From NCBI GenBank assembly GCA_963770565.1, contig CAVYQE010000002.1:480001-544000 (forward strand): DNA of 64,000 nt. Direction: 5' to 3'. The translations under genes and the position numbers were made by a program. The stretch is from an uncultured Actinomycetota bacterium. GTDB lineage: Bacteria; Actinomycetota; Actinomycetes; JAFAQI01. The notes under the pieces are model-generated. The model worked only from the letters and a program-made list of their open reading frames with translations, did no database searches and was not told the origin of the DNA. Every line of letters starts with the position of its first letter. Position 1 is the first letter of the stretch. This document shows, in pieces, positions 8,856 through 59,541 of the stretch.

Positions 8856-8942
8856 GCCAAGCAATGTCACATTGCCCCGCACTTCGTGGGGGCAATGTGA
8901 CCCCACCCCCAGGTTTCGCTGGGCAATGTGACATTGCTTGGC
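8856..8942. repeat. Family B triple-core palindromic element, copy B1 (inverted relative to B2-B4)
   Basis: Perfect 22-bp terminal IR GCCAAGCAATGTCACATTGCCC; GT(C/G)AC cores at 8866, 8897, 8928. Confidence 0.95.
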
Positions 8943-24469: not shown

Positions 24470-24472
24470 CAT

Positions 24473-24553
24473 AGCAATGTCACATTGCCCAGGCGTTTCT
24501 TGGGGTGATGTCACATTCCCCCGGCGATCAGCGGGGCTATGTGACATTGCTTG
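24473..24553. repeat. Family B element, copy B2
   Basis: AGCAATGTCACATTGCCC...GATGTCACATT...TATGTGACATTGCTTGG; cores at 24479, 24510, 24541. Confidence 0.93.
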
Positions 24554-24589
24554 GTACGGCGGGCGGCGCCGCGCTGTCAGACTCAGCTC

Positions 24590-25018
24590 GTGGCGAGCAT
24601 CTGGGGGGTGACCCCGCGCCAGAGCGTCGACGCCGCGTGCGCGCGGGTGGGCGTGTCCGGGGTGGTCACGCTCTGTGTGGCGATTCTCGGCGGCGAGGAG
24701 GTCGACCCGGCCTTCCTGCTAGTGATCGGTGGGCCTGGCGCGCGCAACGTTCTCGACGGCCGCGAAGGCGGAGTGACCGGCTGCTGGCCGCGGACCTGGG
24801 CGCTTCGAGCCCTGCTCTACGCGTGGGACGAGCAAGCAAGTGCCATGGTGCTCGCGGCGACGACCGACGAACATTGGCGGGTGCGCGAGATGGCCGCCAA
24901 GGTGATCGCGAAACACCAGCTCGACGAAGGGCTGGAGGCGGTCGGGCACCTGCGCGCGGACCCGGTTCCCCGGGTACGCGCCGCCGCCGCCAGGGCACAA
25001 CGCCGCCTCACCGAATAG
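24590..25018 (+). CDS. HEAT-repeat protein
   Basis: WPRTWALRALLYAWD, DEHWRVREMAAKV, DPVPRVRAAAARA; CAGACT 6 nt before GTG suggests leaderless. Confidence 0.8.
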   Translation: MASIWGVTPRQSVDAACARVGVSGVVTLCVAILGGEEVDPAFLLVIGGPGARNVLDGREGGVTGCWPRTWALRALLYAWDEQASAMVLAATTDEHWRVREMAAKVIAKHQLDEGLEAVGHLRADPVPRVRAAAARAQRRLTE

Positions 25019-25023
25019 CGCTC

Positions 25024-25107
25024 AAAGCAATGTCACATCGCCCAGAGGATCGTGGGGGTGGAGTCACATTGCCCCCACGAAGTGCGGGGCAATGTGACAT
25101 TGCTTGG
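25024..25107. repeat. Family B element, copy B3
   Basis: Cores at 25032, 25063, 25094; nearly the reverse complement of B1 including spacer CCCCCACGAAGTGCGGGG. Confidence 0.95.
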
Positions 25108-46633: not shown

Positions 46634-46785
46634 CGCCAAACCTGTCCGTCGGAGTGCGTGAACCGAACCCATCGGACAGGCTCGGGGACCCATCAGTAAC
46701 CCGAAGCGCACGCGCTTCTTGGGGTGAAGCCGCTCCGGCGGCCGGGCTAGCCACGGCCCGAACCCGACAGCTAACCCGGTCGGCG
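46634..46785 (+). ncRNA. c-di-AMP (ydaO/yuaA) riboswitch
   Basis: CGCC...CGGGGACCCA...TGGGGTGAA...CCCGAACCCGACAGCTAACCCGGTCGGCG conserved blocks; upstream of a cell-wall hydrolase. Confidence 0.9.
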
Positions 46786-46798
46786 TCGGAGAGCATCC

Positions 46799-47407
46799 AT
46801 GTCCCGAACGACCCTGCGTGTCCGCTCGGCCGTCCTCAGCGCATCCGTCATCGCCTGCCTCGGCGTCGCCGCAGCGCCAGCTGCTGCTGCGACCTCAACC
46901 GCCGGGCCGGCCTCGATCTCGTCCTCCCCGGGGGGCTGGCAGTTCGCCGCCAGGGCCCCCGGCACGCCTCGCCTGCGAGGCGCGAAGCTCACCGTCATCC
47001 AGCGCCACAACCTCGAGGTCCAGAAAGTGCTCCGCGAGGCCAGGCGCCAGAAAGGCAAGCCGTACGTGTACGGCGCCGACGGCCCCAACGGCTTCGACTG
47101 CTCGGGCTTCGTCCGCTTCGTGTTCCTGCACGCCGTACACAAGTCGTTGCCGCACAACGCTGCGCAGCAGTACCACGCGCTTCGCCACATCCGGCGTGGC
47201 AGCCTTCAGCTCGGCGATCTGGTCTTCGTCGACAACGGCGGCTACATCTCCCACGTCGGGATCTACGACGGCCACCACCACTGGTGGGTCGCCCCGCACA
47301 CCGGGCTACGGGTGCAGCGTCAGCGGATCTACCACGCGCACTTCGTCTACGCCCGCGTGCTGGTCTACGACAAGGTCCTCACCCACAAGCAGCGCCACAA
47401 GCACTAA
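46799..47407 (+). CDS. Secreted NlpC/P60 (C40) peptidoglycan endopeptidase
   Basis: Signal peptide; GKPYVYGA, FDCSGF, GDLVF, HVGIY. Confidence 0.93.
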   Translation: MSRTTLRVRSAVLSASVIACLGVAAAPAAAATSTAGPASISSSPGGWQFAARAPGTPRLRGAKLTVIQRHNLEVQKVLREARRQKGKPYVYGADGPNGFDCSGFVRFVFLHAVHKSLPHNAAQQYHALRHIRRGSLQLGDLVFVDNGGYISHVGIYDGHHHWWVAPHTGLRVQRQRIYHAHFVYARVLVYDKVLTHKQRHKH

Positions 47408-47417
47408 CCCGCCGGTC

Positions 47418-47502
47418 CAAAGCAATGTCACATTGCCCAGCGCTTTGTGGGGGTGCGGTCACATTGCCCCCGCGATCAGCGGGGCAATGTGACATTGCTT
47501 GG
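47418..47502. repeat. Family B element, copy B4
   Basis: Cores at 47427, 47458, 47489; between convergent genes. Confidence 0.95.
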
Positions 47503-49032: not shown

Positions 49033-49045
49033 CGGAGCCTTCCGT

Positions 49046-49153
49046 CTCATCTTCCCCGCACGCAACTCGCGCACGAGCCGGAGTTGGCACCTGCCCGCCG
49101 TCGGGTGGTTGCCGGGGCTTCACCGGGCCGGTCCCTCTGCCCCTCTTGATGAG
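49046..49153 (-). ncRNA. SAM-I riboswitch
   Basis: Minus strand CTCATCAAGAG...GAGGGACCGGCCC...TGAAGCC..GGCAACC...GGTGCCAACTCC...AAGATGAG; P1 CTCATC/GATGAG. Confidence 0.95.
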
Positions 49154-49234
49154 TGCGCGACCCGAGGGCCGCGCAGATCAAGTCTGCCACAACGGCGTCG
49201 ATTACTGTCAGCCGCAGTGGGCAACGACAACGGC

Positions 49235-55944: not shown

Positions 55945-56016
55945 AGCCCCGTGTCCGGATCGAACGGACGACCTGCCGCTTACAAGGCGGCTGCTCTACC
56001 ACTGAGCCAACGGGGC
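55945..56016 (-). tRNA. tRNA-Thr(TGT), CCA not encoded
   Basis: GCCCCGT/ACGGGGC acceptor, GCTCAGTGGTAGAGC D-arm, GCCGC-CTTGTAA-GCGGC anticodon arm, GTTCGATCC T-loop. Confidence 0.97.
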
Positions 56017-56893: not shown

Positions 56894-58507
56894 GTGAGCA
56901 ACACCCGCGGTCTGACCCGCCGGCGCGCCCTCGGCCTGATCGCCGGGGCCAGTGCCTCCACCGCGCTGGCCGGCTGCCACTCCTCGACCAAGACCGGCGC
57001 GAAGCCGCCACCCGGCTCGCCCTCGATCAGCGGCTCGCCCGGGCTCTCGCCGACGCCGAACGCCTCGGCGACCGGCGTCCGGCCGGTCGACTGGCACGCC
57101 CTGCGCCGGTCGCTCAGCGGCGACCTTCGGCGGCCGGGGAGCGCGGGCTACAACGCGGCGCGGATCCTCTTCGACCGTCGGTACGACACGGTGATGCCGG
57201 CCGCCGTGGTCCAGGTGGCGAGCGAGGCCGATGTCGCGGCGAGCATCGCGTTTGCGCACCGCTTCGGCCTCCCGCTCCGGATCCGGTCCGGGGGCCACTC
57301 CTATGTCGGGCAGTCGATCGGCCCGGGACTGGTCATCGACCTGAGGGCGATCAACAGCATCTTGATCGACGAATCGGCGGGGACCGCGACGATCGGCGCG
57401 GGAGCCGCGCTCGTCGACGTCTACTCCGCGCTGGCCGCGCACGGAGTCTCCATCCCGGCCGGCTCCTGCCCGTCGGTCGGGCTGTCCGGATTGACTCTCG
57501 GCGGCGGCATCGGCGTGGTCGCCCGCCGCTACGGCCTGACCTGCGACCGGCTGCTCTCGGCCCGGATCGTCACCGCCGACGGCACCACGCTCACCTGCAG
57601 CCCGACCAGCCACTCGGATCTCTACTGGGCACTGCGTGGCGGCGGTGGCAGCTTCGGTGTGGTCACCTCGCTGACGCTCGGAACCCACCGCGCCGACCCG
57701 CTCGCGCACGCGTTCCTCACCTGGCCGTGGTCGGCAGCTGCCGAGGTCGTGGCCGGCTGGCAGCCGTGGGCGATCGCCGCGCCGCGCTCGCTCTGGTCGA
57801 GCGCGCACATCCTCGCCACCGACGGCGGCGGCGACGCGACGATCTCGGTGGCCGCAGTGATGGTGGCGAGCGAGGCGGCGCTTCAGCAGCAGATCGGCAC
57901 TCTCGTGCACTCGATCCGTACGCCGCCCAAGGTCAACTTCGTCGCGAGCGAGAGCTACGAGGCGACCATGATGCTCGAGAGCGGTTGCGCAGCGTTGTCC
58001 GTGGAGTCGTGCCACGTGGCGGACGAGACACCCGGCGGCACGCTGCCCCGGGACGCGTTCGTGGCCGGCTCGGACTTCTTCACCCACCCGATCCCGGCAG
58101 CCGGGATCACCGCGCTGGTGACCGCGGTCGAGCAGCGGCAGAACGACCCGCGGCTCGGGGCCGGCGGCGCGTCGCTGGACATCCTCGGCGGGGCGGTGGA
58201 CGACCTGGCGCCGAGCGCGACCGCCTGGGTCCACCGCGGCGCGTTGTTCGACGCGCAATACACCGCGTCCTGGGGCACCACGCCCGGCAACGGCCCGCTG
58301 GCCCGCAACCAGCACTCACTGGCCACGATCCACGGCGCGCTACGCCCGTACGCGTCCGGGCAGGCCTACCAGAACTACGCGGACGAGACGCTCGCCAATC
58401 CGCAGCGGGCCTACTACGGGGCCAACCTGCCGCGCCTGATCGACGTACGCCGGACCTACGACCCGCACGGCGTGTTCACGCAGCCGCAAGGCGTCCCGTT
58501 GGCGTGA
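56894..58507 (+). CDS. Tat-exported lipoprotein, BBE-like FAD oxidase
   Basis: TRRRAL Tat motif, LAGC lipobox, RSGGHSY, GSCPSVG, LYWALRGGGG, AYQNY, YYGANL...YDP. Confidence 0.92.
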   Translation: MSNTRGLTRRRALGLIAGASASTALAGCHSSTKTGAKPPPGSPSISGSPGLSPTPNASATGVRPVDWHALRRSLSGDLRRPGSAGYNAARILFDRRYDTVMPAAVVQVASEADVAASIAFAHRFGLPLRIRSGGHSYVGQSIGPGLVIDLRAINSILIDESAGTATIGAGAALVDVYSALAAHGVSIPAGSCPSVGLSGLTLGGGIGVVARRYGLTCDRLLSARIVTADGTTLTCSPTSHSDLYWALRGGGGSFGVVTSLTLGTHRADPLAHAFLTWPWSAAAEVVAGWQPWAIAAPRSLWSSAHILATDGGGDATISVAAVMVASEAALQQQIGTLVHSIRTPPKVNFVASESYEATMMLESGCAALSVESCHVADETPGGTLPRDAFVAGSDFFTHPIPAAGITALVTAVEQRQNDPRLGAGGASLDILGGAVDDLAPSATAWVHRGALFDAQYTASWGTTPGNGPLARNQHSLATIHGALRPYASGQAYQNYADETLANPQRAYYGANLPRLIDVRRTYDPHGVFTQPQGVPLA

Positions 58508-58596
58508 CCCCACGCATGGCCCATTGGTGGGGTCATAGCGCCACCCATGGCCCATCGGTGGGGCGATAGGCCCACCAATGGGCCATGCGTGGGTCA
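58505..58596. repeat. Family C triple-core palindromic element
   Basis: ATGG(C/G)CCAT cores at 58516, 58547, 58578; long terminal IR; ends coincide with both flanking stop codons. Confidence 0.92.
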
Positions 58597-59541
58597 GTGG
58601 GAACGGCGCCGGCGGGCGATCTCGGCGAGCGCGATCCCGGTCGCGACCGAGGCGTTGAGCGACTCGACCGCGGAGTGCAGTGGGATCCGTACGGTCAGGT
58701 CGCAGGTCTCGGCGACCAGCCGTGACAGGCCCTTGCCCTCGGCACCGACCACGAGGACCAGCGGGCTGGTCGCGAGCTCCAGCCCGTCGAGGTCGATCTC
58801 ACCGCGGCCGTCGAGCCCGGCCAGCATCAAACCCGCCTCGGCGTAGGACTTCAGGGTCCGCACCAGGTTGGTCACCCGGGCGACGGGCAGATGCGCCAAG
58901 GTGCCGGCACTCGCCTTCCAGGCGGCCGGGGTCACCCCGACCGCACGCCGCTCGGGAAGGAGCAGGCCGTGCGCGCCGAACGCGCTGGCGGATCTCGCAA
59001 TCGCACCGAGGTTGTGCGGATCTGTGACGCCGTCGAGCGCGACGATCAGGGGCGGGTCCGGCTCTTCGAGTACCCGCCGGAGCAGGTCGGACGCCTCGAT
59101 GTAGTCGAACGGCCGCACGAGGAGGGCGACCCCTTGATGCGGGGCGTCGCCCGCGATCCGGTCGAGGTCGAGCCGCGAGACGTCCTGCACCACGACCTCG
59201 CGGGCACCGGCCAGCTTTCGCGCCTCGACGATTCGCTCGTCGTGCGCCAGCCCGGTCGCGACATAGAGCGTCGTGGCCGGCACCGATGCCCGCAGCGCCT
59301 CGACGACCGCGTTGCGACCGGCGACCAGCTCGTCCATCCCGGGTGGGCGCCGCCGCGACCGCGAGCCGCCCGCCCCACCCGAGCTGCTGCGAGCCGCCTG
59401 TGCACGTTTCGCCGCGCTTCGCGCCGCCCGCGCGGCCGGATGCTTCGGCCGCTCGTGCGCCGGCGGGGTCGGGCCGCGTCCTTCGAGCCGGCGCCGGCCG
59501 TGCCCGCCGGTGCCCTTGATCGGACCCTTCTTTCCGGCCAT
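58594..59541 (-). CDS. rlmB: 23S rRNA G2251 2'-O-methyltransferase
   Basis: GRNAVVEAL, HQGV, LDGVTDPHNLGAIARS, GAEGKG, ESLNASVA. Confidence 0.96.
   Translation of the reverse strand: MAGKKGPIKGTGGHGRRRLEGRGPTPPAHERPKHPAARAARSAAKRAQAARSSSGGAGGSRSRRRPPGMDELVAGRNAVVEALRASVPATTLYVATGLAHDERIVEARKLAGAREVVVQDVSRLDLDRIAGDAPHQGVALLVRPFDYIEASDLLRRVLEEPDPPLIVALDGVTDPHNLGAIARSASAFGAHGLLLPERRAVGVTPAAWKASAGTLAHLPVARVTNLVRTLKSYAEAGLMLAGLDGRGEIDLDGLELATSPLVLVVGAEGKGLSRLVAETCDLTVRIPLHSAVESLNASVATGIALAEIARRRRSH

Follow-up and report, generated by a model that had tools for sequence, protein, structure and literature searches.

The window studied here is a stretch of 64,000 nucleotides (G000:C2:480001-544000) from an uncultured Actinomycetota bacterium, whose 4.43-Mb assembly G000 has 11 contigs, 68-70% G+C and a completeness of 94.9%. 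Our subject is a small repeat element in this window, family C, together with a second repeat, family B, and a protein gene that is bracketed by such repeats elsewhere in the genome. The window copy of family C is found at 58505..58596 between two convergent genes. To its left lies a gene for an FAD-linked (BBE-type) oxidase of 537 amino acids (56894..58507, plus strand; PF01565, FAD_binding_4, 2.9e-34; PF08031, BBE, 6.1e-12) and to its right a gene for an rlmB-like SpoU rRNA methyltransferase (58594..59541, minus strand; PF00588, SpoU_methylase, 3.5e-37; PF08032, SpoU_sub_bind, 3.5e-15). The TGA stop codon of the oxidase gene (58505-58507) is formed by the first three bases of the array, and the TGA stop codon of the rlmB-like gene, which reads TCA on the plus strand (58594-58596), by the last three. 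Since both outer stop codons belong to the convergent genes, the 92-bp element is the entire intergenic space.

The array consists of three units of 31 bp which together form a 92-bp near-palindrome, as seen in the sequence itself, in pattern matches and in folding. It is arranged as TGA-CCCCACGC-ATGGCCCAT-...-ATGGCCCAT-...-ATGGGCCAT-GCGTGGG-TCA. The three 9-nt cores follow each other at exactly 31 bp. Core 1 (58516..58524) and core 2 (58547..58555) both read ATGGCCCAT, and core 3 (58578..58586) reads ATGGGCCAT, which is core 1 inverted. Tandem Repeats Finder (TRF) calls a repeat at 58508-58593 with a period of 31 and 2.8 copies. Two spacers of 22 bp separate the cores (58525..58546, with GGTGGGG..CGCCACC, and 58556..58577), and each of them is self-complementary, which is also borne out by covariation across genomes (see below). 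An earlier note, made from the letters of the window alone, had described three cores on a 31+31 bp lattice, self-complementary spacers and an element which fills the gap between the stop codons of the oxidase and rlmB. This description proved right, the self-complementarity of the spacers being imperfect.

Folded as RNA, the 92 nucleotides of the plus strand form one long hairpin with -72.9 kcal/mol (z -6.1). The minus strand reaches -70.5 kcal/mol (z -6.7) and the DNA -43.4 kcal/mol (z -6.9). In the long hairpin unit 1 pairs with unit 3, and unit 2 with core 2 forms the tip. The C,C,G polarity of the cores to which the note had drawn attention is indeed seen, but it needs no explanation of its own because units 1 and 3 are inverted copies and the whole 92 nt is one hairpin. 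The core pattern ATGKSMCAT has 12 matches in the window against a mean of 0.73 and a maximum of 4 in 100 shuffled sequences, so the pattern is more frequent than expected by chance, as the note had supposed. Nine of these matches lie outside the array and make up four family B elements, which were recognized by pattern matches and their inverted repeat. They are located at 8857..8941 (85 bp), 24470..24554, 25023..25107 and 47418..47502.

A search of the window with Rfam at the gathering threshold gave nothing matching at the array. Elsewhere in the window Rfam matches a SAM riboswitch (49044-49155, minus strand), a c-di-AMP (ydaO) riboswitch (46651-46800, plus strand) and a tRNA (55945-56016, minus strand). 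In four public DNA runs (X1-X4) the depth over the repeat (window 58514-58615) is 20-30x that of the flanks, and the contigs end there with many different continuations. None of the contigs of these four runs bridges the array, and length variants were not readable from them. The repeat thus occurs in abundance in the source soils and interrupts short-read assemblies. Arrays of this type break metagenome assemblies and can mislead the annotation of gene ends.

Families B and C in the genome and its relatives

We searched the whole genome for 9-nt odd palindromes, and a spacing peak is given by ATGG.CCAT (128 copies) and ATGT.ACAT (148 copies) only. Genome-wide, 84 pairs of cores lie 31 bp and 89 pairs 62 bp apart, compared to 10 pairs at 30 bp and 2 pairs at 32 bp. 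Likewise, TRF lists 46 rows with period 31 versus 21 with period 30 and 7 with period 32. A fuzzy search with the 21-nt inner unit yielded 49 family C arrays with 124 units, some of the 4-mismatch single units being possibly due to chance. Seven arrays have one unit, 20 have two, 15 have three, three have four and four have five units. Neighboring units are spaced by 31 bp in 74 of 75 cases. The spacing expected by the earlier note is therefore kept in the other copies, whereas its notion of a triplet is correct only for the 31-bp lattice: there is no fixed triplet, and family C forms tandem arrays of one to five units.

The consensus unit is TAGCCCCACCG-ATGGGCCAT-GCGTGGGGCTA, that is, a 9-nt core (ATG-K-S-M-CAT) and a 22-nt GC-rich self-complementary spacer. 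The units begin and end with TAGC...GCTA or TGAC...GTCA, and their junctions read CTATAG. Many arrays have a single orientation throughout. Where the orientation changes within an array, units with the C core precede units with the G core, and the reverse order was never seen in the 49 arrays. On the assembled contigs we counted 66 units in G orientation and 23 in C orientation. The terminal unit is "C" on the sense strand of the adjoining gene on 45 of the 61 sides next to gene 3′ ends and on 19 of the 37 sides next to 5′ ends.

To place the arrays relative to genes we assigned the gene context by codon-position GC phasing. Eighteen of the 49 arrays lie between two 3′ ends, 25 between a 3′ and a 5′ end and six between two 5′ ends, so that a gene 3′ end adjoins 43 of the 49. 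The situation at the rlmB-like gene is repeated at many of these places: of the 61 sides which adjoin a gene 3′ end, 30 (left 17 of 32, right 13 of 29) have the stop codon within -4 to +1 nt of the array's edge.

Family B is represented in G000 by 66 full elements of 85 bp with terminal inverted repeats and by another 52 single matches. The terminal inverted repeat is CCAAGCAATGTSACATTGC and the cores are 31+31 bp apart. In the window an open reading frame (ORF) for a HEAT-repeat protein of 157 amino acids (24545-25018, PF13646/PF02985) lies between two B elements which are 468 bp apart (24470-25107). The region of G000:C1:50000-400000 and C1:236640-243085 is rich in tandem hairpin arrays of other kinds, whose periods are 25-69 bp; GACGGCTCGGGAGAGCCGTC and GTCATCACGGCGGAGCGTGATGAC are examples of their units. 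The same region also contains CRISPR arrays with a 37-nt repeat.

The family C unit is present in 7 of 41 related genomes, with 89 matches in G000. The more general lattice ATGNSNCAT-N22-ATGNSNCAT-N22-ATGNSNCAT was found in 16 of the 36 genomes of the taxonomic family, and the reversed control pattern gave 0 matches. Genomes G000, G001, G003, G012 and G021 have the core ATGGSCCAT with the stems CCCCACC/GGTGGGG or CAACACC/GGTGTTG. In G002 and the genomes of genus g6 the core is ATGTGCCAT/ATGGCACAT, which is non-palindromic, half C and half B; the stems of g6 are GATACC/GGTATC. Genome G004 combines ATGTSACAT, which is the B core, with the C-type layout TAGC-stem-core-stem-GCTA. The forms of G004 and of G002/g6 are intermediates which join B and C in one class. 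The note had also held that all three cores of an array changed together between B and C. This requires no special mechanism, because the units within an array are mutual copies.

Several spacer sequences coexist in one genome and are nevertheless self-complementary. In a set of 61 core-spacer-core segments, taken from 12 genomes, the paired cells amount to 68.8% versus 54.7% after shuffling, and the covariation score is 0.427 versus 0.199 (0 of 500 shuffles as high; slid controls 0.13-0.20), although these figures overstate independence because the segments are related. In the core, the ATG...CAT frame varies hardly or not at all. In G006 (L052, G006:C9:583-653) the core ATGGGCCAT belongs to a tandem repeat of 31 bp whose flanks are in direct and not in inverted orientation (CGCACCC...GCGCACC). 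This repeat therefore lacks a spacer hairpin and is related to the lattice either as a degenerate form or as a different one.

Comparison of orthologous sites shows that the arrays are polymorphic. At the rlmB/oxidase site G000 has three units and G003, the rlmB of which is 96% identical, has about two degenerate units. In G004 and G001, which belong to the same genus, the convergent gene pair is kept with element-free, unrelated spacers of 26 bp and 14 bp. At a second orthologous site G000 has two units and G003 one; the difference is exactly 31 bp and in both genomes the unit supplies both stop codons. Thus, arrays are gained, lost and resized by 31-bp steps among the species of one genus. 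For a further array (L093) the comparison gave no clean empty site, as the contigs of G003 break off within the array, and G001, G002 and G004 do not keep the synteny.

The partner gene and its protein

We listed the genes of G000 which have an element on each side and in this way found a gene that we call the partner gene. Its C-type copy (G000:C11:330841-331782, 319 amino acids) has C arrays on both sides, and the stop codon of the gene is the TAG of the array. A B-type paralogue (G000:C1:1103707-1104687, 327 amino acids), which is 45% identical to the C-type protein, has B elements on both sides. The other genes with arrays on both sides code for xthA-like, adenosine deaminase-like and ndk proteins, for the HEAT-repeat ORF and for an IS4/IS1634-like transposase, and none of them recurs. 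The last of these, a DDE transposase (PF01609, 4.9e-15; G000:C11:863864-865708), lies between a partial and a full B element; possibly this insertion sequence (IS) was inserted beside or into a B copy.

A profile search with 40 sequences detected the protein family in every one of the taxonomic family's 36 genomes, and most genomes have 1-3 full gene copies per clade. One clade is vertically conserved, and G000, G003 and G012 have it at just one locus. In G002, G045 and G049 the homologues are flanked by the lattice variants of their own genome, at loci without flank homology. G001 carries a truncated copy of about 196 residues (L062, G001:C95) which is flanked by arrays at the orthologous folC-ndk site, and an intact second copy at G001:C50.

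We then compared the 230-nt upstream and downstream flanks of 30 loci, each being the best match in its genome (30 genomes). For the longest word that both flanks have in exactly the same form, the median length is 17-18 nt, and words of at least 12 nt are present at 25 of the 30 loci but at only 1 of 28 when distal flanks of the same loci are used as control. The flank repeats vary with the lineage. Three flank motifs that do not belong to the lattice are dispersed solely in the genome whose gene they adjoin. The motif of the G050 gene has 34 matches in G050 and 0 in the other genomes tested (period 31/62), that of the G017 gene 185 matches in G017 and at most 5 in the others tested (period 30), and that of the G010 gene 49 matches in G010 and at most 3 in the others tested (period about 31-33).

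On a maximum-likelihood tree of the protein the core type changes 6 times, compared to a mean of 14.4 after shuffling of the labels (0 of 200 as low), but this test overstates the significance because the labels are common to kin. One clade, with support 97/93, unites the proteins that go with ATGTSACAT, from G004 (genus g1) and five genus g6 genomes. As G004 groups with g6 and away from its own genus, the protein clade tracks the core type and not the host genus. The earlier note had suggested cataloguing core variants and looking for a protein family that tracks them, and the partner protein is such a family. The note's view that B and C are one class of elements is likewise supported, by the intermediate forms in the relatives and by the fact that each brackets its own paralogue of one protein family. 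As to its term "specificity variants", protein clade and core type do covary; that the protein reads the core is suggested by this pattern.

Looking beyond the taxonomic family, we found the protein at E <=1e-40 in 61 members of a sample of 251 genomes from the whole class, a tally which includes the unpublished genome G068. At 20 loci of distant Actinomycetes with 28-44% identity, 13 have common flank words of at least 12 nt and up to 47 nt. This bracketing would be the same pairing in a weaker form. At nearly all loci (L063-L092, L115-L134; e.g., L054:445-460) a conserved TCCACAG-like motif is found 60-110 nt upstream of the gene start, in the stretch that follows the upstream repeat. It is often doubled, with the copies 25-40 nt apart, and is a candidate promoter or auto-operator. 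In the flanks inspected, where other genes adjoin the repeats, there is no second gene between the nuclease gene and the repeats and no toxin gene, AbiEii not having been searched for.

The partner protein has about 315 amino acids. It has no NCBIfam match (E up to 1) and no sequence relative in the PDB, and a Pfam search with six members at E up to 10 returned no family, DUF559 included, besides two weak unrelated rows. At least 182 homologues were found at E <=1e-5. All are annotated as "hypothetical" and lack Pfam domains, and contigs of 1-2 kb encode many of them. An AlphaFold2 model (pLDDT 94, pTM 0.89) divides the protein into two parts. Residues 1-188 have fold matches in AbiEi, the antitoxin of a type IV toxin-antitoxin system (6y8q; Z 11.9 over 181 residues), and in M. 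tuberculosis Rv2827c (1zel; Z 9.2); the partner protein differs from these by the additional C-terminal domain. For residues 191-298 the model matches the DUF559-like protein 3hrl (Z 11.1, root-mean-square deviation 2.6 over 92 residues), the catalytic domain of I-Bth0305I (3r3p; Z 9.9 over 92 residues), E. coli Vsr (1vsr; Z 7.5) and AbaSI (Z 6.7).

Six residues are invariant across 40 sequences, namely E196, D229, H239, E240, N242 and H247. The stretch D229...E240-T-N-G...H247...G-L-T-V-L-H aligns with VDF...E-A-D-G...H...G-F-T-V-L-R of 3hrl. The D...ExDG..H motif of the DUF559/Vsr endonucleases is thus present in the modelled fold with N for the second D. By sequence the profile reaches only E 0.19 against 3hrl, and the nuclease domain is too divergent for a Pfam match to DUF559. 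The predicted fold is an AbiEi-like winged helix joined to a PD-(D/E)xK nuclease domain of the Vsr/DUF559 type. A homodimer prediction gave a score of 0.17 (mark 0.42), which we count neither way.

Known systems and competing explanations

We suggest that family C is probably a hairpin-forming intergenic repeat which resembles the repetitive extragenic palindromes (REPs) and is partnered with a non-HUH nuclease, and that this also applies to family B and the variants in the related genomes. By analogy, the layout would be that of REP repeats around a REP-associated tyrosine transposase (RAYT), with an unrelated enzyme in its place. Bacterial genomes commonly contain REP-like repeats, but to our knowledge a dedicated enzyme, the RAYT, is known for the GTAG class of REPs alone. 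The association of REPs and bacterial interspersed mosaic elements with the RAYT transposase ("REPtron") is described in Di Nocera 2013 (PMC3733652) and Nunvar 2010 (PMC2817692). In passages of the former, the termini of GTAG REPs give TAG stop codons to flanking ORFs, the repeats form tandem clusters and several families occur per genome; CGTC REPs and untagged palindromes appear there without a known partner enzyme (PMC3733652). REPs near stop codons are also a subject of PMC12306157.

Family C and REPs are both GC-rich imperfect palindromes of 20-40 bp (31 bp for the family C unit) in extragenic clusters behind genes, with stop codons supplied by the termini and some tandem repeats. Both systems have a low-copy gene bracketed by cognate repeats and can have several families per genome, every family with a gene copy of its own; here the enzyme is a different one. 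The terminal GTAG/CGTC tag is not a general feature of family C, as GTAG/CTAC is found in a minority of the junctions. Family C further differs by the strict head-to-tail lattice of 31 bp and by the conserved 9-nt core between hairpins. A Y1/HUH RAYT (PF01797) was detected in none of the 36 genomes of the taxonomic family, G000 included, while the control search matched 6 of 14 reference genomes.

REPINs are REP doublets which form hairpins. The long hairpin of the 92 nt in the window, with two inverted units around a middle one, resembles them, as do the restriction of the repeats to lineages and the copies that outlast a decayed gene. Family C differs from REPINs (cf. bioRxiv 10.1101/2021.07.10.451892) by its arrays of 1-5 units, many with one orientation, and by the other class of enzyme. 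In CRISPR arrays unique spacers of similar length separate the repeats, but the units of family C directly adjoin each other with no such spacers in between, their period being as long as the unit itself (31 bp). With intrinsic terminators the arrays have in common a GC-rich hairpin directly behind stop codons on either strand; the window array has no T tract after the hairpin because it runs directly into the convergent gene. The mycobacterial TRIT motif also has GC-rich hairpins behind stop codons that are foldable on both strands. From both, family C is set apart by the conserved core, the tandem units and the dedicated gene. In the literature covered, to which subscription journals do not belong, we found Vsr/DUF559 or AbiEi-like proteins nowhere connected with REP-like repeats, and nothing on REPIN/RAYT in Actinobacteria.

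Several observations speak against our suggestion, in addition to the kinship which weakens the tree test. In the partner protein N242 replaces the second D of ExD, and therefore its activity may differ from that of Vsr/DUF559. The protein is also present in 20 genomes free of the ATGNSNCAT lattice, so that its presence alone does not predict a lattice. Only two alignment columns are fixed within and different between the core-type groups, and no specificity residues were identified. In G021, which carries C units, the C-type gene has decayed to three pieces, each in another frame, and still has arrays at its flanks (G021:C5:1592438-1593354). The gene was not found in the C-unit carriers G003 (92% complete, 550 contigs) and G012 (80% complete); gene loss or assembly gaps at repeats may account for its absence from some genomes with C units. 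The clade that includes a third paralogue of G000 has single, non-dispersed flanking hairpins; this paralogue lacks a dispersed family because its flank hairpin motif GCGCTAGAACGC is single in the genome. Finally, neither a target-site duplication nor a defined insertion target is recognizable in four G004 copies and two compared orthologous sites.

The main rival is that the gene is a selfish homing cassette. The repeats would then spread and persist alone, as terminator-like hairpins which grow by slippage and recombination, and the nuclease would target the abundant repeat without mobilising the arrays. As the cassette would land inside arrays, it would be flanked by them. The Vsr-like homing endonuclease I-Bth0305I (PMC3239194) has a catalytic domain of the same predicted fold (Z 9.9), although the partner gene lies outside of introns and inteins and is bracketed by dispersed repeats. 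Gene and arrays at non-homologous loci in different genomes are compatible with homing, and so is the persistence of C units where the gene is broken or not found. The flanks of the gene consist of whole elements or arrays rather than of half sites, which would also suit such a cassette. On the other hand each dispersed repeat type is found solely in genomes which encode the matching clade, and homing would need repeated retargeting to explain this. The mostly 1-3 full copies per clade and the vertical conservation of the clade with just one locus in each of G000, G003 and G012 likewise do not fit well. We regard homing as unlikely.

Another explanation, which we consider quite improbable, is an IS-like transposon with a PD-(D/E)xK transposase, made up of the gene and its flanking repeats. 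The dispersed B and C copies would be gene-less cut-and-paste derivatives like miniature inverted-repeat transposable elements (MITEs). Terminal inverted repeats of 16-27 nt are indeed seen in the B elements, the window C array and the elements of G004 and g6, and in some clades the gene has inverted ends like those of an IS, e.g., GATCATCGCCG...CGGCGATGATC. The elements that flank the gene are whole and not half elements. However, target-site duplications were not seen at the copies and sites mentioned above, and the gene is low-copy. Moreover, the C copies consist of 1-5 units in head-to-tail order and change by 31-bp steps; they are not fixed units between two terminal inverted repeats.

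Still less probable appears to us that the arrays are a lattice of chromosomal binding sites. In this case 31 bp would correspond to about three helical turns, the AbiEi-like protein would be a regulator or nucleoid organiser and its nuclease-like domain would be inactive. AbiEi is a DNA-binding autorepressor, and the predicted N-terminal fold is that of AbiEi. The strict period agrees with a binding lattice, and the TCCACAG-like motif that is conserved upstream of the gene hints at autoregulation. Yet the arrays are located at gene 3′ ends and not at promoters, the residues of the nuclease motif are invariant, and the presence of arrays varies among close species. Spacers that differ in one genome and are nevertheless self-complementary point to a structure and not to one sequence-specific site. 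To chance or an assembly artefact we give practically no weight: the sole caution is that metagenome assemblies can collapse repeats and that in the public runs the contigs are interrupted at the array, whereas the shuffled and reversed-pattern controls gave about 0 matches and the same architecture is present in 16 independent genome assemblies.

Proposed mechanism and its meaning

If the repeats and the nuclease form a pair as we suggest, the process could proceed in the following steps. The partner protein would recognize the core, presented between or on hairpins, and would nick the DNA at or near the unit boundary. Repair or template switching could then copy units elsewhere, or add or remove units of 31 bp. 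Copies which come to lie flush with gene 3′ ends would survive because the own ends of the unit restore the stop codon. On transcripts of either strand the arrays would fold into very stable hairpins, probably ending or protecting the mRNA.

A wider proposal is possible, and we put it forward with considerably more reserve. Actinomycetes may hold an undescribed class of repeat-associated enzymes which combine an AbiEi-type winged helix with a nuclease of the Vsr/DUF559 type and play a RAYT-like role. Each clade would read its own 9-nt core, exposed between hairpins, and would seed, copy and resize 31-bp arrays which bring built-in stop codons and bidirectional hairpins to the ends of genes. 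Our suggestion that repeats and nuclease form a pair gives a testable function to at least 182 "hypothetical proteins" for which there is no Pfam model. Natural specificity variants are on offer for such tests, namely B versus C and the cores ATGGSCCAT, ATGTGCCAT and ATGTSACAT.

The pairing of repeat and gene extends across 30 genomes of one taxonomic family, and with it a clear candidate for a partner, from another class of enzymes, is at hand for the untagged REP-like superfamily. If true, our suggestion would account for repeats which lie flush on the stop codons of tightly packed convergent genes.

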